Below are positions 3,485 through 14,266 of a stretch of 17,610 nucleotides of DNA, one piece after another. The position numbers were made by a program, and so were the translations under genes. The first letter of the stretch is position 1, and the number at the start of each line of letters is the position of its first letter. Source of the stretch: Promethearchaeota archaeon (lineage in GTDB: Archaea; Asgardarchaeota; Lokiarchaeia; Sigyniarchaeales; SOKP01); the NCBI GenBank assembly GCA_008080735.1, contig SHMW01000089.1:334-17943 (forward strand). Direction: 5' to 3'. The notes beneath the pieces are model-generated. The model was not told where the DNA came from, did not search any database, and saw only the letters and a list, made by a program, of their open reading frames with translations.

Positions 3485-6322
3485 TTAGCTGGTAAAGGTA
3501 GTCAAGCCTTTCTTTACTCTAATTCGCCATTTACGGATCTCATCAACTAGGAACACGCTAAAACCCGCGATAATCACTGTTAACCAGTACTCCCACCTTA
3601 ATAGCGGGACGACATTGAACGCTATTCCCATTGGTGTATACAGTATTAATAACTGTAATACAAAAGAAAGTCCCGTCGCCCAAAACAAGTTCTTATTTGG
3701 GAATAACCAAAATGGTTTGAAATTAGATGTACATGAATACACAAACAAGAGTTCACATACTACAAGATTCGTAAATATTATCGTCTGTGCTAATGTTGCA
3801 GCATACATATTGGCATCAGTTCCCACGTTGATAAAGTTCATGGTTAAATTTGGATCAATGTTCCCTTGAGCCCATGCTGGAAGCAATACGAACCAGAGTA
3901 ATAAATAAAGTGTAATATCTGTAATTGAGGTATAAATACCCAAGAAAAGGACGGGACCTTTAATTTCCGATATCAATGAAAAACCTTCACGCGGCTCGTC
4001 TTTCATCACATCTGGATCAGTTGGAGTGAACCCAAGCACCATCGCAGGTATCCCATCCGTTGCGATATTTAACCAGAGTATCTGAATAGGTGTTATCGGA
4101 AGGGCTGCAAAGGTGACGAATTTGATTACAATATAAGCAACTAGAATAAGGAATATCTCATCAAAATTGGTGCTTAGCATGTATCGGAAGAAGCCTTTTG
4201 TGGTCTCAAAAATTCCTCGACCCTCTTCAATGGCTGAAACAATGGTAGAGTAATCGTCGTCTAGAAGAATCATATCGGAGGCTTCTTGAGTAACTTCCGT
4301 ACCCTTAATCCCCATCGAAACGCCCACATTCGCTCCTTTAACGGCGGGCGCATCGTTCACACCATCACCTGTCATTGATACGACATTTCCTTCAGCTTTT
4401 AATGCTTTAAGGATTCGCAGTTTATGCTCTGAAGTGACTCTGGCAAATATATCAACATCTCTTATTCTTCTAATTAACTCATCATCCGTCATCTCTTCCA
4501 ATTCCGCGCCAGTGATCGCCTCATCTTTATCTGTCAGTCCGATTTCTTTTCCAATCGCCATTGCTGTGATTTTATGATCTCCCGTGATCATTATAGTTCG
4601 AATTCCGGCATTCCTCGCAACTTGGATTGATTTTTTGACTTCATCTCTCGCAGGATCAATGATACCCGCCAAACCAAGATAGGTAAAATCCTTTTCGATA
4701 TCATCCTCTCTATATCCTTCACTCAATGGTTTATATGCGATGCCTAGTACCCGCAAAGCATTTTCCGCTAATTCATTGTTCTTAGAAAGATAATGGTCTT
4801 TTATTTCATTTATTGGTTTTACTTCACCATTATAGAGCCCTTTTCCTGCTTTTTCGATGAGCACATCGGGAGCTCCTTTAATCATAGAGTATAATTCTCC
4901 ATTCATACGCACGACAACTGACATCATTTTTCTGTCTGAATCGAAGGGTATCTCATCTAGTTTTTCTGCTTTAGGCTCTACATCCATTTTTTTAGCAAGC
5001 ACTTTAAGCGAAATCTCAGTAGGATCTCCAATGACATCAGTTTTATTGGATCCATCATTTCGAGGAGTGACGGTCGAATTATTACAAAGTTGGCAGACTT
5101 GCAGGTATCGTTCAAGATTGTTATTGTCTTGTATATTGAGGGGCTCTCCGGACTCCTTGAGGATCTTTCCATCTAAAGCATAACCTACTCCTTCCACATC
5201 ATATTCTTTGCCTCCAAGATACACCTTTTTAACCGTCATCTCATTCTTAGTCAGGGTTCCAGTCTTATCTGAGCAAATAATATTCACTCTCCCGAGAGTC
5301 TCGACCGCGGTTAATGTTTTTACTAAAGCATTTCGTTCTGCCATTTTCCGCATCCCAATACTCATGACTACTGTAATAACGACCACTAATCCCTCAGGTA
5401 CCGCCGATACTGCGAGACTTATTGCTACTTTAAAGGCATTTATAAGTTGCTCGATCTGATTTGTTTCCCCAGTAGGAAATCCAAACACTAAGATAGATTC
5501 CACCACAAAAACAATAGCACAGATAATTATAATAATGATTCCTATTTTTCTTCCAAAGATATCCACTTCTTCTTGGAATGGACTTTTTTCGTGTGTTTCT
5601 TCTTGAATTTTTTCCGCAATTTTCCCAACCTCCGTTTTCATCCCCGTTCGTACCACGACTGCTTTTCCATTCCCCCGTGTTATGATCGTATTGCTGAAAA
5701 CCATATTTTTTCTATCTGCGAGGATCGTTTTCTTATCGTGAATCTTGAGTTGTTTTTCGACAGGTTGCGATTCTCCCGTTAAAATTGCCTCATCAGCATA
5801 TAATGAATATGCTTTTGTTAATCTAGCATCCGCGGGAATCTTGTCCCCCTCATCAATCTGGATAATATCACCTGGTACAACTTCTGCGATATCAATTCTT
5901 CTAATCTTTCCCTCACGTATCACTTTTGCATAATGAGGTGCCATTTTTTTTAGACTCTCTAACGCCTTTTCTGCCTTAAACTCTTGATAAAATCCTAATA
6001 TTGCATTCACTATAAGGATAATAAAAATTACCAGAGCATCAATAAATTCTGAGGGCGCTTCACCTTGAGATAATTCATAGATCCCGATAATGATTGACAC
6101 CGCGATGGCAAAGAATAGAAGATAGACAAGGAAATCCTTGAATTGGCTGAGAAAAATTTCCCAAGCCGTTACTCTCTTGGTTTCTTTTAATTCATTAAGT
6201 CCGTATTTTTCTAAACGTTTTTTTGCTTCAGTTTCATTAAGCCCGTTTTCGATTGAGGTATCCAACTCATCAGCAACGTTCTCAACTTCTAACGCGTGTG
6301 CGTCTAATTCTTCAGTTTCCAT
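3485..6322 (-). CDS. P-type IIA (SERCA-like) cation/Ca2+-transporting ATPase, paralog 1
   Basis: TGES, PEGL, CSDKTGTLT, KGAP, DPAR, MITGD and TGDGVNDAPA motifs. M5 STNFDE, M6 NIATDG, about 10 hydrophobic segments. Confidence 0.93.
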   Translation of the reverse strand: METEELDAHALEVENVADELDTSIENGLNETEAKKRLEKYGLNELKETKRVTAWEIFLSQFKDFLVYLLFFAIAVSIIIGIYELSQGEAPSEFIDALVIFIILIVNAILGFYQEFKAEKALESLKKMAPHYAKVIREGKIRRIDIAEVVPGDIIQIDEGDKIPADARLTKAYSLYADEAILTGESQPVEKQLKIHDKKTILADRKNMVFSNTIITRGNGKAVVVRTGMKTEVGKIAEKIQEETHEKSPFQEEVDIFGRKIGIIIIIICAIVFVVESILVFGFPTGETNQIEQLINAFKVAISLAVSAVPEGLVVVITVVMSIGMRKMAERNALVKTLTAVETLGRVNIICSDKTGTLTKNEMTVKKVYLGGKEYDVEGVGYALDGKILKESGEPLNIQDNNNLERYLQVCQLCNNSTVTPRNDGSNKTDVIGDPTEISLKVLAKKMDVEPKAEKLDEIPFDSDRKMMSVVVRMNGELYSMIKGAPDVLIEKAGKGLYNGEVKPINEIKDHYLSKNNELAENALRVLGIAYKPLSEGYREDDIEKDFTYLGLAGIIDPARDEVKKSIQVARNAGIRTIMITGDHKITAMAIGKEIGLTDKDEAITGAELEEMTDDELIRRIRDVDIFARVTSEHKLRILKALKAEGNVVSMTGDGVNDAPAVKGANVGVSMGIKGTEVTQEASDMILLDDDYSTIVSAIEEGRGIFETTKGFFRYMLSTNFDEIFLILVAYIVIKFVTFAALPITPIQILWLNIATDGIPAMVLGFTPTDPDVMKDEPREGFSLISEIKGPVLFLGIYTSITDITLYLLLWFVLLPAWAQGNIDPNLTMNFINVGTDANMYAATLAQTIIFTNLVVCELLFVYSCTSNFKPFWLFPNKNLFWATGLSFVLQLLILYTPMGIAFNVVPLLRWEYWLTVIIAGFSVFLVDEIRKWRIRVKKGLTTFTS

Positions 6323-6528: not shown

Positions 6529-9378
6529 TTAGGTTGTAAATTTGGTCATACCCCTTTTGACTCTGATTCTCCACTTCCGGATCTCGTCTACAATGAATAC
6601 GCTGAATGCTCCTAATAGAAGTGTTACCCAGTATTCCCATCTGTAGAGTGGGACTACTTTAAAGGCAATTCCTAAGGGTGTAAAGAGTATTAGAAACTGT
6701 AATGCCAATGAGAGACCAGTCGCCCAGAACAGATGTTTATTCGGAAATAACCAGAATGGTTTAATATTTGAGGTACAAGAATAGACAAATATTAATTCGC
6801 AAATAACGAGGTTCGTAAATACTATCGTCTGTGCTAAAGATATCGCATATAAGTTTTGAGGGCTTCCATCAATTAAATATGCCATTGTCAGATTGGGATC
6901 AATCCCTGCTGTTGCCCATGCTGGAATTAATACTGACCAGAGCAGTAAATAAAGTGTAATATCTGTAATTGAGGTATAAATACCCAAGAAAAGGACGGGA
7001 CCTTTAATTTCCGATATCAATGAAAATCCTTCACGGGGCTCGTCTTTCATCACGTCTGGATCAGTTGGAGTTAATCCCAAAACCATCGCGGGAATACCAT
7101 CAGTAGCGATATTCAACCACAAAATTTGAATAGGTACAACAGGTAGAGCTAGAAACATTCCCGCAAACAACTTCATAACAATATAGGCAGTAAGAATTAA
7201 GAAAATCTCATCAAAATTCGTACTTAACATATATCTAAAGAAGCCCTTCGTAGTTTCGAATATCCCTCTGCCCTCCTCAATTGCATCTACGATTGTAGAA
7301 TAGTCGTCATCAAGTAATATCATATCGGACGCTTCTCGCGTAACTTCAGTTCCTTTAATACCCATCGCTACACCAACATTTGCACCTTTCACGGCGGGTG
7401 CATCGTTCACACCATCACCGGTCATAGAAACTACTTTACCCTCGCCCTTTAAAGCTTTCAAGATTCTGAGTTTATGTTCGGAAGTGACCCGGGCAAATAC
7501 ATCTACATTTTCTACTCTTCTAAGTAATTCATCATCCGTCATCTCTTCCAATTCCGCCCCTGTGATCGCCTCATCTTTATCAGTTAATCCGATTTCTTTT
7601 GCAATCGCAATCGCAGTAATTTTATGATCCCCAGTAATCATTATTGTTCTAATACCAGCCATCCGAGCTTCTTCAATAGAGTCTTTTACCTCGTCCCTTG
7701 CGGGATCAATGATTCCTGCTAAACCAAGATAGGTAAAATCTTTCTCAATATCTTCTTCGCTATATCCTTCTTGTAATGGTTTAAATGCAATACCTAACAC
7801 TCGAAGCGCATTTTCTGCAAATTCATTATTTTTTGAAAGATATTCTTCCCTAATTGCTTGAATTGATCTGATTTCTCCGTTATATAATCCTTTCGCAGCT
7901 TTTTCGATGAGGACATCGGGTGCTCCTTTAATTAAAGAATATAGTTTTCCTTCCATACGGACAACGACCGACATCATTTTCCTATCAGAATTAAAAGGAA
8001 TTTCATCTACTTTTTCTGCTTTTGAATCTATATCCATCTTTTTGGAAAGCACTTTAAGTGAAATCTCAGTCGGATCACCGATAACATCAGTTTTTTTCGT
8101 TCCGTCATTTCTTGGATTTACAGTAGAGTTATTACAATATTGGCATACCTCTAAATATCGTTTAAGATAACTTTCATCTTGGACATCGATAGATTGACCA
8201 GAATCTTTGACTATTTTACCTTCCAAAGTATACCCCACTCCTTCCACATCATATTCCTTTCCCCCAAGATACACCTTTTTAACCGTCATCTCATTCTTAG
8301 TCAGGGTTCCAGTCTTATCGGAGCAGATTATGTTGACTCTCCCAAGAGTCTCGACCGCGGTTAATGTTTTTACTAAAGCATTTCGTTCTGCCATCCTTCG
8401 CATCCCAATGCTCATAACAACGGTAATAACTACTACCAGACCTTCCGGAACCGCTGATACTGCGAGACTAATTGCTATTTTAAAAGCTTCAATAATTGCC
8501 TCAATTTCATGTTGATCAAATTGAAGTCCCTCGTCGATCAGAATAAGGATAAATTCGACAGCAAATACGATAAAACATATGACGATTATTAATTTCCCTA
8601 GCAATCTTCCAAATTTATCAATTTCCACTTGAAATGGTGTTTTTTCATGAACTTCTTCTTGGATCTTCTCGGCAATTTTACCAACTTCTGTTTTCATCCC
8701 CGTCCTCACGACTATTGCAAGACCATTTCCGCGGGTGATAACTGTATTGCTGTAAACCATATTTTTTCTGTCTGCTAATATAGTTTTTTGGTCGTATAAT
8801 TTCAAATCTTTTTTAACTGGTTGTGATTCTCCAGTAAGAATCGCTTCATCAGCATATAAGGAATACGCATTAATAAGTCTCGCATCTGCAGCGACTTTAT
8901 CTCCTTCATCTAATTTTAATAAATCTCCGGGAATAACATTCTTTACATCAATTTGTTGTACTTTCCCATCTCGTATTACTTTGGCATAATGTGGTGCCAT
9001 TTGTTTAAGACTTTCTAATGCTCTCTCTGCTTTGTATTCTTGATAAAAACCTAATATGGCATTGACGATGAGAATAATGAAAATTACCAAAGCATCTATG
9101 AACTCAGAAGCTTCCTCTCCAGTATAAAGTGAATAAAACCCGATAATAATAGAAATAACGATGGCAAAGAATAAGAGATAGATCAAGAAATCCTTAAATT
9201 GACTTATGAATATTTCCCATGCTGATATTCCCTTAGTTTCTTGTATTTCGTTCGTTCCATATTTTGCAAGCCGTTTTTGTGCTTCCCTTTCAGTTAAACC
9301 GTTCTCTATTGATGTATCAAGCTCATCCGCGACTTTATCAACTTCTATAGAATGTACGTGTAATTCTTCGCTTTTCAT
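6529..9378 (-). CDS. P-type IIA (SERCA-like) cation/Ca2+-transporting ATPase, paralog 2
   Basis: Same motif set. Collinear and highly similar to 3485..6322 (tandem duplicate). Confidence 0.93.
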   Translation of the reverse strand: MKSEELHVHSIEVDKVADELDTSIENGLTEREAQKRLAKYGTNEIQETKGISAWEIFISQFKDFLIYLLFFAIVISIIIGFYSLYTGEEASEFIDALVIFIILIVNAILGFYQEYKAERALESLKQMAPHYAKVIRDGKVQQIDVKNVIPGDLLKLDEGDKVAADARLINAYSLYADEAILTGESQPVKKDLKLYDQKTILADRKNMVYSNTVITRGNGLAIVVRTGMKTEVGKIAEKIQEEVHEKTPFQVEIDKFGRLLGKLIIVICFIVFAVEFILILIDEGLQFDQHEIEAIIEAFKIAISLAVSAVPEGLVVVITVVMSIGMRRMAERNALVKTLTAVETLGRVNIICSDKTGTLTKNEMTVKKVYLGGKEYDVEGVGYTLEGKIVKDSGQSIDVQDESYLKRYLEVCQYCNNSTVNPRNDGTKKTDVIGDPTEISLKVLSKKMDIDSKAEKVDEIPFNSDRKMMSVVVRMEGKLYSLIKGAPDVLIEKAAKGLYNGEIRSIQAIREEYLSKNNEFAENALRVLGIAFKPLQEGYSEEDIEKDFTYLGLAGIIDPARDEVKDSIEEARMAGIRTIMITGDHKITAIAIAKEIGLTDKDEAITGAELEEMTDDELLRRVENVDVFARVTSEHKLRILKALKGEGKVVSMTGDGVNDAPAVKGANVGVAMGIKGTEVTREASDMILLDDDYSTIVDAIEEGRGIFETTKGFFRYMLSTNFDEIFLILTAYIVMKLFAGMFLALPVVPIQILWLNIATDGIPAMVLGLTPTDPDVMKDEPREGFSLISEIKGPVLFLGIYTSITDITLYLLLWSVLIPAWATAGIDPNLTMAYLIDGSPQNLYAISLAQTIVFTNLVICELIFVYSCTSNIKPFWLFPNKHLFWATGLSLALQFLILFTPLGIAFKVVPLYRWEYWVTLLLGAFSVFIVDEIRKWRIRVKRGMTKFTT

Positions 9379-9657: not shown

Positions 9658-9682
9658 TTAAAATTATAATGGGTGGTTCTCG

Positions 9683-10051
9683 TTTAAAGTCAAAATCACA
9701 AAAACAGCCTTGAAATATATTTATCGGGAACAAGGTAAAAAGCACAGAAGTAATAACGGTGAAAAACCTTCGATTGCGATCTTCTACCATGAAAGTTCTT
9801 CTTGAACTACCTTCTATTGTGGGAACATGGTAGAAATTGTTGACAAAAAGAAGATTTTAAGAGATTCTGAACCATTTATCCTCTGGGATGATGTCGACGG
9901 AAATCCTCCAATCGAAGTCTTTATAGAAAAAAAGGTTATAGATGAACTCGAACAAAAACGCGAATTACTAATTGATGCGGCGTTGGGAAAAGTTAAAGAT
10001 AAGGATTATGGTATGCTGTTTATTAAAAAGCAAGGAAATGTATATGGATAA
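9683..10051 (+). CDS. Putative HesB-like selenoprotein, paralog 1 (in-frame TGA 9803-9805 = Sec; start uncertain)
   Basis: The frame is open from 9662 to TAA 10049-10051 except for TGA at 9803: FKVKITKTALKYIYREQGKKHRSNNGEKPSIAIFYHESSS-U-TTFYCGNMVEIVDKK...EVFIEK...LLID...IKKQGNVYG. It aligns without gaps to paralog 2 across the TGA and has a SECIS-like hairpin right after the stop. Possible starts: TTG 9710, TTT 9683 (homologous to the paralog's TTG), or ATG 9669 via a -1 shift. Confidence 0.78.
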
Positions 10052-10091
10052 AAATGAACCGATCTTATAAATTCTAGAAGATGGGTGATTT
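10051..10091 (+). promoter_or_regulatory. SECIS-like element (eukaryote/Lokiarchaeota-type) in the 3' UTR of paralog 1
   Basis: ATGA(10054-57), stem ACCGATCTT/AAGATGGGT, apical ATAAATTCTAG, then GA(10087-88)TTT. This gives an AUGA/GA tandem G.A core with apical unpaired As. Confidence 0.8.
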
Positions 10092-10272
10092 GCGGTGCGT
10101 CCGTTATAAAAATCCATATGAATTATGGAATATAATTATAGGAACCTCTATCAATAATTTAGTAAACCACTTTTTATAACAGAATTTTATATTATAATCT
10201 GAATCTTTTATATGGATGGTAATTTTAAGTTAATAAACAAATAACTAAATATAATAAATTAGGGATATTAAA

Positions 10273-10623
10273 TTGAACGTTTCTCTTACGGATGATGCGA
10301 AACGATTAATTAAGGAACAGAGCGAAAAGATTCGTGAACGAGAACCTGTTGATGATATCGTTCTAGCAATTTATCAATATTCCAGCAGGTCTTGATCAGG
10401 GTATTTCTGTACCGATTTGGTTCAATTGGCAGATAAAAAAGATGTTCAAAAACATGGAAGTTTCATAGAGATGAAAGATATATCTAATAATGACGGATTT
10501 GAAGTGTATATTGAAAAGGACACTTTAGATTCATACAAATCATACAAGGATTTGTTAATTGACGGAGAAGAGATGGATCGCTTTGGTCAAAAAGTTGCTC
10601 GATTAACCTTAATTAAAAAATAA
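10273..10623 (+). CDS. Putative HesB-like selenoprotein, paralog 2 (116 aa; TTG start; TGA 10393-10395 = Sec41)
   Basis: TTG 10273 with AGGGA 7 nt upstream. MNVSLTDDAKRLIKEQSEKIREREPVDDIVLAIYQYSSRS-U-SGYFCTDLVQLADKK...FEVYIEK...LLIDG...LIKK*. HesB/IscA-like N-terminal V-x-L-T-x-x-A-x3-I pattern and EVYIE strand, plus a downstream SECIS-like hairpin. Confidence 0.85.
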
Positions 10624-10635
10624 ATCAACACTTTC

Positions 10636-10681
10636 AAAAATACGACCTAATCTTATAAATTATAGAAGATTAGTGATTTTT
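10636..10681 (+). promoter_or_regulatory. SECIS-like element in the 3' UTR of paralog 2
   Basis: AAAAAT, ACGA(10642-45), C, perfect 8-bp stem CTAATCTT/AAGATTAG, apical ATAAATTATAG, T, GA(10675-76), TTTTT. 10642-10679 matches 10054-10091 at 31/38 nt. Confidence 0.8.
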
Positions 10682-10699
10682 CGGGTTGCGCCCGTTTTT
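10682..10699 (+). terminator. Small GC hairpin plus T-run after SECIS 2 (terminator or 3'-end structure)
   Basis: CGGG-TTGCG-CCCG followed by TTTTT. A homologous CGG-TGCGT-CCG follows SECIS 1 at 10093-10103. Confidence 0.4.
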
Positions 10700-12919: not shown

Positions 12920-13405
12920 ATGAGAGCAGCGCGCGTATTTCGATGGATAGTGCGTATCTTTGTTCTGTTTCTTACCGTCTCAATGACTGTTCTGTCCGTT
13001 TTAGGAGGGCTTTCTGCTGTACAAATCTTAAATGATCCTAATAATGTACAAATTCCATCTGGATCTTTAGATTTTAACCTAACATCAACAGAACCATATA
13101 TTAACGTTCCATTTAGGATTACTAATGCTGGTTATTATGATCTAACTAATTTAACAATCAGTTTTAAAATAGAAATGGATAACGCAACAGAAGTCTCTCA
13201 AACGATCTATGATGATACAGAGAGTTTTGGTGATATATTACATGGGGAGACTTTAGATGGTAATTATAATGCCACAAACTTTATTACTACAGATTTTTAT
13301 TTTGATCCAACTTTTCTTGCTAATATCACGGTTTCCGCGTCTTATTCCTTAGATCTAATCTCCTTTGAAGTAAGATTAATTAATTTAAATGTAACTGAGC
13401 TTTGA
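12920..13405 (+). CDS. Membrane-anchored hypothetical protein with extracellular beta-rich (LEA2/Ig-like) domain
   Basis: N-terminal basic plus hydrophobic segment, then INVPFRITNAGYYDLTNLTISF and several sequons (NLT, NAT, NIT, NVT). Confidence 0.7.
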   Translation: MRAARVFRWIVRIFVLFLTVSMTVLSVLGGLSAVQILNDPNNVQIPSGSLDFNLTSTEPYINVPFRITNAGYYDLTNLTISFKIEMDNATEVSQTIYDDTESFGDILHGETLDGNYNATNFITTDFYFDPTFLANITVSASYSLDLISFEVRLINLNVTEL

Positions 13406-13410
13406 GGTGA
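13404..13410 (+). promoter_or_regulatory. Shine-Dalgarno GAGGTGA overlapping the upstream TGA stop
   Basis: TGAGGTGAtaatATG. Archaeal-type SD 4 nt before ATG 13415, consistent with an operon. Confidence 0.6.
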
Positions 13411-13414
13411 TAAT

Positions 13415-13897
13415 ATGGGAGCAAGAAAAAATATACTGAAAGGATTTTTGTTTATGTTGGGTTATGCGGGATTTACGATTATCGTACCATATCTTACCTT
13501 TTCATATATTAGGGATTTAACTATTGCTGGTATCGATTTAGGCCTAACTCAAGAGGGTTATAGAACAATCATCTTTTGGGTGGTCGCGTTTGGATTATTA
13601 ATAAGCGGTTTTGCCTTTTTTACTTATTCCTCACCGAAACAGTCGATCAGAAAAGGAGTTTTTGCGCTAATTCAAATTATCGTAAATTGTATGTATTTAT
13701 GGAGTTACAAATTTTCTGGGGCCACCACCGTTAATTTTGAGATAATTGCATATAACGGATTTGTTTCTATAAATCTTCAACAACTAATACTGGTCTACAT
13801 GGGGATCTATTTCTTAACTATCGCAATCAAAATCTATGATCTCGTCGATTTCACTATCAATAGAGATAAAATCAGAAAAATGAGGAGGGAAGATTAA
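13415..13897 (+). CDS. Hypothetical membrane protein, about 4 TM helices
   Basis: Four hydrophobic segments, SD site and basic C-terminus. Confidence 0.75.
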   Translation: MGARKNILKGFLFMLGYAGFTIIVPYLTFSYIRDLTIAGIDLGLTQEGYRTIIFWVVAFGLLISGFAFFTYSSPKQSIRKGVFALIQIIVNCMYLWSYKFSGATTVNFEIIAYNGFVSINLQQLILVYMGIYFLTIAIKIYDLVDFTINRDKIRKMRRED

Positions 13898-14266
13898 ATG
13901 TTATTACAAGCATTGGATTTTCTTCAGGTATTAGCTGATATTTTTGGTACGATCATTCTCTATTTGGGTCCGATTGTTAGCCCAATCGGAGAATTCATGG
14001 TATTATGGATTAATTATGTATTAGCTTTCTTCCCCACTGGAGATTGGACTATATATATCGTAATTTTTGTAATTCTAATCATCATTGCAATTGTTGTCAA
14101 TAGTTATTGGCCCGGAGATAAACCTTTAAAATCAGAGAAAGAAAAAAAGGGAAAAGATTTATCAGTGGATGAAAAAGAGCCCGAAATTGGTACAAGCGAA
14201 GATTTCGACATGGAAGATGATCTCGATTTTGAGTTGGACGAAGATCTATTACCAGAAGACGACTAA
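13898..14266 (+). CDS. Hypothetical membrane protein with acidic C-terminal tail
   Basis: Abuts the previous stop (TAA-ATG). Hydrophobic N-half, then a Lys/Glu linker and EDFDMEDDLDFELDEDLLPEDD. Confidence 0.72.
   Translation: MLLQALDFLQVLADIFGTIILYLGPIVSPIGEFMVLWINYVLAFFPTGDWTIYIVIFVILIIIAIVVNSYWPGDKPLKSEKEKKGKDLSVDEKEPEIGTSEDFDMEDDLDFELDEDLLPEDD

Follow-up and report, generated by a model that had tools for sequence, protein, structure and literature searches.

Two tandem candidate selenoprotein genes of the HesB/IscA fold with lokiSECIS-type elements in a Promethearchaeota archaeon

Introduction

HesB-like selenoproteins of the family TIGR01911 (HesB_rel_seleno) contain selenocysteine (Sec, U) in a UxGP motif (Table 1 of PMC13188914), were labelled with 75Se in Methanococcus maripaludis and are also present in anaerobic bacteria (PMC11097638, PMC1794560, PMC13188914). 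For Asgard archaea, the listed selenoprotein families are SelD, FrhA/VhuU, HdrA, FrhD/VhuD, PrxL, AhpF-N-like and DsbA-like (PMC4989117, PMC11227280; repeated in PMC13188914). The selenocysteine insertion sequence (SECIS) described from this group as lokiSECIS consists of AUGA, a 9-bp stem, an 11-nt A-rich loop ending in AG, and then GA or AA (PMC4989117, section 11), and the lokiSECIS of Mariotti et al. 2016 is the type I eSECIS-like element of Huang et al. 2024 (PMC11227280). Here, two neighbouring short genes, named A and B, were analyzed in a 17,610-nt stretch of DNA (the window) from Promethearchaeota archaeon GCA_008080735.1 (contig SHMW01000089.1, positions 334-17,943 of the forward strand). 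Each gene is crossed by one in-frame TGA, and a sequence-only reading of the window had proposed them as a tandem pair of HesB-like selenoproteins.

The A and B proteins resemble TIGR01911 in being small, single-domain and distantly related to IscA, in having one Sec and no assigned function, and in that the Sec genes coexist with Cys homologs. They differ from it by the motif U-x4-C (U-S-G-Y, U-T-T-F) in place of UxGP, by falling below its hidden Markov model (HMM) cut-off of 66.35 bits, by a SECIS of the lokiSECIS type, and by the Asgard lineage. The curated model touched by the largest number of members of the new family (6/40) is NF041239, a CC/Se motif family (seleno)protein originally predicted in Moorella thermoacetica, whereas its motif is CxxU or CC, its cut-off of 40 bits was not reached, and the window proteins gave no match to it. 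With IscA, SufA and ErpA (PF01521; 1r94, 2d2a, 1x0g) the proteins share the fold over the whole chain, the N-terminal strand and helix, a '..IDx' strand, and the placement of Sec on the first Cys; unlike them, they lack the C-terminal C-x-C (CGCG), have Sec for Cys with an extra Cys five residues later, and stay below the Pfam threshold. The published Asgard genes with lokiSECIS or eSECIS-like elements share with A and B the decoding system and a type I SECIS near the stop codon; the protein family of A and B is another one and the core of the gene B element is ACGA.

Results

Reading frames and starts of genes A and B

The proposal that two short open reading frames (ORFs) extend upstream through a single TGA each, with the TGA at codon 41 and a Cys at codon 46, agreed with the translations when codons were counted from 9683 and 10273. 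The frame of gene A was open from 9662 to the stop TAA (10049-10051) with one TGA inside, and that of gene B contained only one TGA between its TTG start and the TAA ending at 10623. The Sec contexts were IAIFYHESSS-U-TTFYC in gene A and LAIYQYSSRS-U-SGYFC in gene B. The two products were 32% identical (BLASTP, E 2e-15) with likeness on both sides of the TGA, and their alignment, claimed to be free of gaps to residue 56, was ungapped to about residue 60 in the family alignment.

The start given for gene A did not hold. The codon at 9683 is TTT, which is no start codon, and the first in-frame ATG, GTG or TTG is the TTG at 9710, a start that would cost the protein its first beta-strand. The orthologs have a TTG or CTG start 2 bases after a GGTGR motif, and gene A has TCG at this place (9680-9682). 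When the upstream regions of the 41 aligned homologs (see below) were brought into register, GGTGR was kept upstream of subfamily A genes; the GGTGG of gene A is presumably a Shine-Dalgarno sequence, given its complementarity to the 3' end of archaeal 16S rRNA. The 5' end of gene A is uncertain. Both TGAs, the TCG of gene A and the ACGA of the gene B SECIS were reproduced in contigs from two marine-sediment runs of one study, one of which may itself be the source of this metagenome-assembled genome (MAG). The features are collected in Table 1.

Table 1. Positions of the analyzed features in the window, with the evidence for each
Feature	Coordinates	Strand	Details	Evidence
Gene A (subfamily A)	9683..10051	+	predicted HesB/IscA-fold selenoprotein, about 122 residues	translation, orthologs with one TGA, AlphaFold2 model, start-codon comparison
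Gene A in-frame TGA	9803..9805	+	read as Sec41	aligned with TGA in 38/38 and with Cys in 3/3 homologs
Gene A partner Cys46 codon	9818-9820	+	TGT	translation
Gene A Shine-Dalgarno-like motif	9672..9676	+	GGTGG	GGTGR kept upstream of subfamily A genes
Gene A SECIS, lokiSECIS type	10054..10088	+	AUGA 10054-10057; stem 10058-10066 with 10078-10086; loop 10067-10077, AUAAAUUCUAG; GA 10087-10088	alignments, covariation, match to PMC4989117 section 11
Second G+C hairpin after gene A SECIS	10092..10104	+	GCGG-UGCGU-CCGU	helix conserved in family
Gene B (subfamily B)	10273..10623	+	predicted HesB/IscA-fold selenoprotein, 116 residues; start TTG 10273, stop TAA 10621-10623	translation, orthologs with one TGA, AlphaFold2 model
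Gene B in-frame TGA	10393..10395	+	read as Sec41	family alignment; syntenic ortholog P0035 (locus L055) with Cys and no SECIS
Gene B partner Cys46 codon	10408-10410	+	TGT	translation
Gene B SECIS	10642..10676	+	ACGA 10642-10645; stem 10646-10654 with 10666-10674; loop 10655-10665, AUAAAUUAUAG; GA 10675-10676	alignments, covariation
Second G+C hairpin after gene B SECIS	10682..10694	+	CGGG-UUGCG-CCCG, then U-run	family alignment
P-type IIA-like cation ATPase	6529..9378	-	949 aa, divergent from gene A	Pfam and NCBIfam matches
Tandem type IIA-like P-type cation ATPase	3485-6322	-		paralog of 6529-9378
Three small predicted membrane-protein genes	12920-14266	+	161, 160 and 122 aa	first recurs 3' of selenoprotein genes in 13/30 loci

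Conservation of the TGA and exchange of Sec for Cys

A six-frame search with gene B in 161 genomes of the same class revealed about 70 homologs in 50 genomes, all within one taxonomic family and nearly all with one TGA inside. When 400 genomes of the phylum were searched with a profile, strong matches (E < 1e-26) were obtained in 53 of the 134 genomes of this same Lokiarchaeial family and in none outside it. An alignment was built from 41 genes extracted from the family homologs. In 38 of them, from 13 genera, the TGA fell at a single alignment position, far beyond what chance would give, and was followed five residues later by Cys in 38/38. The remaining three genes, subfamily C, had TGT in the Sec column and Leu or Ser in place of the second Cys; all three come from one genus, where they have an A gene on one side and a B gene on the other. 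Position 41, where Trp, Arg or Gly in homologs would have spoken for another decoding, thus held TGA (38/41) or Cys (3/41), and none of these three residues was seen among the 41 genes. The Sec/Cys column was the sole invariant position of the family. The overall Sec motif was U-[ST]-x-x-[FY]-C, with S-[ST]-U-T-x-x-F-C-G-N and a C-terminal GMLFIKK..VYG in subfamily A and R-S-U-S-G-x-x-C in subfamily B. Genes of the B type were seen only in genomes that also hold the A type, and A occurred alone in many genomes.

The 40 codons 5' of the TGA were compared with the orthologs of two congeners. The proportion of nonsynonymous differences (pN) was 0.19-0.37 and that of synonymous differences (pS) 0.58-0.88, and the ratio of the corresponding rates (dN/dS) was about 0.2 where computable. 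These values indicate that this upstream segment is held under purifying selection, in line with the coding conservation that had been predicted there.

Only 76 relatives were found among 1.84 billion cluster representatives. Most of them were fragments starting just after the TGA or ending at it, as a gene caller would produce, which is the truncation that had been foreseen, and the NCBI entries were 71-74-residue proteins named 'hypothetical protein [Candidatus Lokiarchaeota archaeon]'. The full-length entries had W or C at the Sec position. The single W entry with retrievable DNA proved to be a TGA read by table 4 ('with_TGA=W') on a 1.3-kb contig, and TGG was found in the Sec column of 0/41 genes read from DNA. 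Cys at this column was also present in the database forms P0014/16/25/28 and P0035/45/53.

In P0035 (locus L055, 4001-4381), an ortholog of gene B, Cys replaces Sec and an insertion creates C-x2-C-x5-C-x2-C, and the same was seen in P0045 and P0053. This motif, located at the same hairpin, is of a kind typical of metal or cluster sites. The gene order of L055 was that of the window, with P-type ATPase, gene A, gene B, aconitase and the same three small genes. Gene A of this locus kept its TGA and its SECIS (core AUGA...AA), and the Cys-type gene B was without SECIS, so that loss of Sec and loss of the SECIS coincide at one orthologous site.

SECIS elements after genes A and B

In accordance with the expected 3'-untranslated region (3'-UTR) SECIS of Lokiarchaeota, an element of the lokiSECIS type was present after both genes. 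The gene A element starts 3 nt past the stop codon and 251 nt past the UGA, the gene B element starts 249 nt past the UGA, and the two 3' UTRs have a 55-nt element in common. Over the family the layout was an A-run, AUGA, a 9-bp stem, an 11-nt loop with A-rich start and AG end, the other arm, GA and a U-run. Both window elements fit lokiSECIS exactly in the 9-bp stem, the 11-nt loop, the 3' GA and the closeness to the stop codon, except for the core of gene B.

Of 38 Sec genes, 36 had the element directly 3' of the stop codon. Among the two exceptions, one gene reaches the end of its contig, and a SECIS was recognized by eye after the other. It was found after none of the three Cys genes of subfamily C. 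Among 37 SECIS sequences, all 9/9 stem pairs had changed on both sides and the final G of the loop was invariant, and 93% of the stem cells were paired, compared to 40-53% when the 3' partners were slid by 1-3 columns. The core was AUGA in 33, GUGA in 1, AUGU in 2 and ACGA in 1, the last being gene B with the only C at that position. Close congeners have AUGA, which suggests that the ACGA of gene B is a recent U-to-C change.

A second hairpin of 4 bp, with GC kept in its loop and followed by a U-run, was observed 3' of every family element. Of the cells in its helix 88% were paired, and 3/4 pairs had changed on both sides. This hairpin may be a terminator, or an accessory stem of the SECIS and part of the Sec signal. 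It goes unmentioned in the SECIS descriptions that were compared. Similar G+C hairpins were also noticed 3' of the SECIS of other selenoprotein genes in the same genome (contigs C10, C13, C42 and C102).

A pattern scan of the genome revealed the same SECIS architecture after two VhuD-like genes, with two Sec each, and two PrxL genes, both of which are known Lokiarchaeial selenoproteins (PMC4989117, PMC11227280). A covariance model of the family SECIS, which contains family-specific parts, recovered only the two family elements from the same genome among the 150 of 6876 candidates scored. The Rfam scan of the window matched no SECIS family and is uninformative, as Rfam holds no lokiSECIS model. 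A lokiSECIS-type hairpin also comes after two other ORFs that are crossed by in-frame TGA and are candidate selenoproteins, at C7:24804-25292 (minus strand, LDPGC-U-U-EK) and at C102:10142-10357 (plus strand, GEPSG-U-AC).

Structure models and relation to HesB/IscA proteins

Neither protein matched any Pfam or NCBIfam model at E <= 10, which together with U-x4-C in place of UxGP fits the divergence that had been claimed. The models predicted by AlphaFold2 with the family alignment reached a predicted local distance difference test (pLDDT) score of 91.7 and a predicted template modelling (pTM) score of 0.81 for gene B, and 85.9 and 0.79 for gene A. In a search of structure representatives the same top 7 structures were obtained for both models, namely 1r94, 2d2a, 2k4z, 1x0g, 2qgo, 2p2e and 2apn, with Z of 9.7-5.8 for gene B and 8.2-5.1 for gene A, and the next unrelated match had a Z of 3.5. 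The scores for B and A were 9.7 and 8.2 with IscA (1r94), 9.5 and 7.6 with SufA (2d2a), and 8.0 and 6.4 with DsrR (2k4z), and Foldseek also returned 1r94 (E 1.5e-4). The models thus matched only structures of the IscA, SufA and DsrR type, as the HesB-like assignment had implied. In these confident models, residues 1-40, encoded upstream of the TGA, make up the first strand and the first helix as well as one half of the central hairpin.

By sequence the kinship was hardly visible. A profile search of PDB sequences with the family alignments found no IscA, and the relation shows only in the comparison of folds. PF01521 was weakly matched by 4/40 family members (best E 8.2e-5) with its threshold of 26.3 bits not reached, and NF041239 (best E 0.005), NF038090 (2/40) and TIGR01911 (1/40, E 0.054) were all touched far below their cut-offs, a Cys form scoring 22 bits on TIGR01911. 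A third, Cys-containing HesB-like paralog of the same genome (C15:54662-54988, minus strand; locus L054:1417-1743) scored 26.3 bits on PF01521, which equals the threshold. The family was aligned with this paralog by hhalign with a probability of 81% (E 1.2e-5), and Cys32 of the paralog (Q-E-G-C-T) fell on the Sec column. Sec41 would therefore occupy the position of the first conserved HesB/IscA Cys, an indirect assignment that passes through one paralog. IscA has three conserved cysteines, the first in G-C-S-G and two more in the C-terminal C-x-C. In the family alignment, the C-terminal Cys pair was found in none of the subfamilies A, B and C. For P0014, which has Cys naturally, homodimer prediction scored 0.03, which counts neither for nor against an oligomer.

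Weaker TGA-bearing relatives with the HesB fold were noticed in other Asgard families (L067-L071), with R-G-U-[SCG]-G, a C-terminal G-S-C and a SECIS of their own, one of them scoring 38.3 bits on NF041239 against the cut-off of 40. Subfamilies A, B and C would therefore be one divergent branch, confined to Lokiarchaeia, within a broader group of (seleno)proteins with the HesB fold.

Sec machinery and use of TGA in the genome

The protein part of the Sec machinery, which a genome decoding these genes should have, was present: SepSecS (389 bits, C15), a PSTK/KTI12-type kinase (139 bits, C93), EFSec/SelB (243.9 bits, above the TIGR00475 cut-off, C15) and a SelD gene with an in-frame TGA, thus Sec-containing (C63). 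SepSecS was found in 59 of 61 sampled genomes of the Lokiarchaeial family. The remaining part, tRNA-Sec, was not found. RF01852 gave no match above cut-off among the 150 of 198 candidates scored, and the sub-threshold ones look like ordinary tRNAs. ARAGORN reported none at default, where it found only 13 tRNAs in all, and its low-threshold hits on C13 and C27 were AT-rich false positives. A pattern scan for the anticodon arm and T-loop gave 12 raw matches, none with an acceptor stem.

A genome-wide reassignment of TGA was considered and rejected, as TGA is an ordinary stop elsewhere in this genome. Of 1549 long ORFs, 270 end with TGA, and a further in-frame stop follows as quickly behind it as behind TAA or TAG (median of 11 codons vs 12-14).

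Genomic neighbourhood

The N-terminus of the P-type ATPase adjoined a gene of the family in 27/30 loci from 13 genera (tblastn), and a search with the ATPase as query found it beside the family also in named Promethearchaeia/Promethearchaeota MAGs. Aconitase was located downstream in 9 loci and the small membrane-protein gene in 13/30. Among the three small genes of the window, those of 161 and 160 aa had no family match and that of 122 aa had a weak sub-threshold match to DUF2208. Because all carriers belong to one family, inheritance alone may explain the ATPase neighbourhood, which is a lead only. The Cys-containing paralog on C15 is separated by 3 kb from SepSecS and by 10 kb from EFSec; a functional link to these genes was rejected, the adjacency being present in one congener and not in four other genera.

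Discussion

Genes A and B have a conserved recoding signal and the IscA fold, their homologs exchange Sec for Cys, and their SECIS is of the type found after known selenoprotein genes of the same genome. That both are genuine Sec-encoding genes is very probable. Taken as a whole, we regard it as probable that they encode two separately transcribed IscA-fold selenoproteins, in which UGA is read as Sec through lokiSECIS and Sec serves as ligand or nucleophile. Since an upstream region, a SECIS in the 3' UTR and a hairpin resembling a terminator accompany each gene separately, each would be its own transcription unit. The ribosome would decode the one UGA inside each gene as Sec rather than as a stop, and the lokiSECIS about 250 nt downstream, eukaryote-like with an AUGA/ACGA...GA kink-turn core, would recruit the archaeal Sec elongation factor with Sec-tRNA(Sec). 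In the folded protein, Sec41 is predicted in the beta-hairpin loop at the position of the first HesB/IscA Cys, with Cys46 five residues on. There Sec41, together with Cys46, might bind and pass on a metal, a Fe-S cluster or a chalcogen, as ligand or nucleophile, and probably between subunits that assemble into an oligomer like those of IscA. What we infer from these observations is that Sec is in fact inserted, what the ligand is and how the subunits oligomerize.

Several points weigh against this reading. The case is built on DNA sequence and structure models. No tRNA-Sec was found in this 140-contig, 93%-complete MAG. Gene A has no canonical start at the orthologous position, so that its translation may be weak or begin at another place. 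Among the 37 SECIS sequences only that of gene B has an ACGA core, which may affect its efficiency. In the models, Sec41 and Cys46 lie in or beside the hairpin loop, where the pLDDT of model A is about 69 for residues 41-50, and the modelled distance between Sec and Cys is accordingly uncertain. The proteins lack the two C-terminal cysteines with which IscA binds its cluster. Subfamily C, with its single remaining Cys, is hard to reconcile with a site fixed at four ligands or with an indispensable U/C redox pair.

For the role of Sec, a metal, Fe-S or chalcogen function is favoured by the fold, by the four cysteines that stand in place of U-x4-C in the Cys-type orthologs of gene B, and by the single Cys of subfamily C, kept as a carrier ligand would be. 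A ligand or carrier function, as opposed to a purely redox one, is nevertheless advanced as a tentative preference. The proteins may instead be real selenoproteins acting as small thiol/selenol oxidoreductases through a Sec41-Cys46 selenenylsulfide pair, carrying neither metal nor cluster. U-x4-C is invariant in all Sec forms, the flexible appearance of the Sec loop in model A would allow residues 41 and 46 to meet, and a redox function is assumed for most prokaryotic selenoproteins that await characterisation (PMC13188914). On the other hand, the fold is that of A-type carriers and not thioredoxin-like, subfamily C combines Cys at the Sec column with Leu or Ser for the second Cys, and the Cys-type orthologs of gene B gained a cluster-like motif of four Cys instead of a simple pair. 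We hold a redox function to be possible and rather unlikely.

Two more specific roles appear improbable. As a relay of selenium or sulfur, real selenoproteins A and B would carry a perselenide or persulfide on residue 41 and feed the synthesis of Sec or of a cofactor. This would suit DsrR, an IscA-like protein of the dsr system of sulfur oxidation, among the best structural matches, and the position of the Cys paralog near SepSecS and EFSec. That adjacency, however, occurs within the genus only, genes A and B themselves adjoin a cation ATPase and not the Sec machinery, and the family is present in 53/134 genomes, whereas SepSecS is nearly universal there. There is likewise only a small chance that Sec41 and Cys46 from each subunit, whether of A, of B or of an A/B pair, make up a metal or Fe-S site with selenium as ligand, and that the proteins work with the conserved divergent P-type ATPase, for example as a cytosolic metallochaperone or as a sensor of the pumped ion. 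If this were true, it would be the first A-type carrier with a selenolate ligand, and type II P-type ATPases would gain a new class of partner.

The explanations that dispense with Sec fare worse. Read-through of UGA as a standard amino acid such as Trp, Cys or Arg, by near-cognate or suppressor decoding, would agree with the W in some database entries and with the tRNA-Sec missing from this MAG, and is very improbable in view of the origin of the traceable W entry on a short contig, the lack of TGG in the Sec column, and the covarying SECIS in a genome with SepSecS, PSTK, EFSec and SelD. That the TGAs are true stops, with short downstream ORFs of 74 and 68 residues as products or with the genes as decaying pseudogenes, is hardly credible, for although databases mostly hold 71-86-residue fragments starting just past the TGA as 'hypothetical protein', TGA is a normal stop in this genome and gene A has no canonical start, the TGA column is kept over 13 genera with Cys in other homologs, the codons upstream of it are under constraint and encode part of the confidently modelled fold, and the SECIS strictly co-occurs with the TGA and is missing after Cys genes, so that the pseudogene interpretation had been discounted with good reason.

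With genes A and B taken as Sec-encoding IscA-fold proteins, the decoding mechanism, the fold and the idea of a HesB-like selenoprotein are known, and the A/B/C family itself is uncatalogued. The family is absent from the lists of Asgard selenoproteins in the 2016, 2024 and 2026 surveys, which name other families only (PMC4989117, PMC11227280, PMC13188914), and full-text literature searches combining Asgard, selenoprotein and HesB returned no report of it. Together with the bare 'hypothetical protein' entries in the databases, this agrees with the suggestion that the family might be undescribed.

The known mechanism of Sec decoding is unchanged by the finding. What it would add is one more Asgard selenoprotein family beyond the seven credited, present in about 40% of the genomes of one large Lokiarchaeial family and often with 2-3 paralogs. 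Every gene caller splits or truncates the genes of this family, so that selenoproteome counts and the annotation of hundreds of MAGs would change. The family also supplies 37 further covarying examples of lokiSECIS, including a natural ACGA core. Finally, its natural exchanges between Sec and Cys, among them the change from Sec to four Cys, could show the role of selenium at the cluster-binding position of an IscA-like fold.

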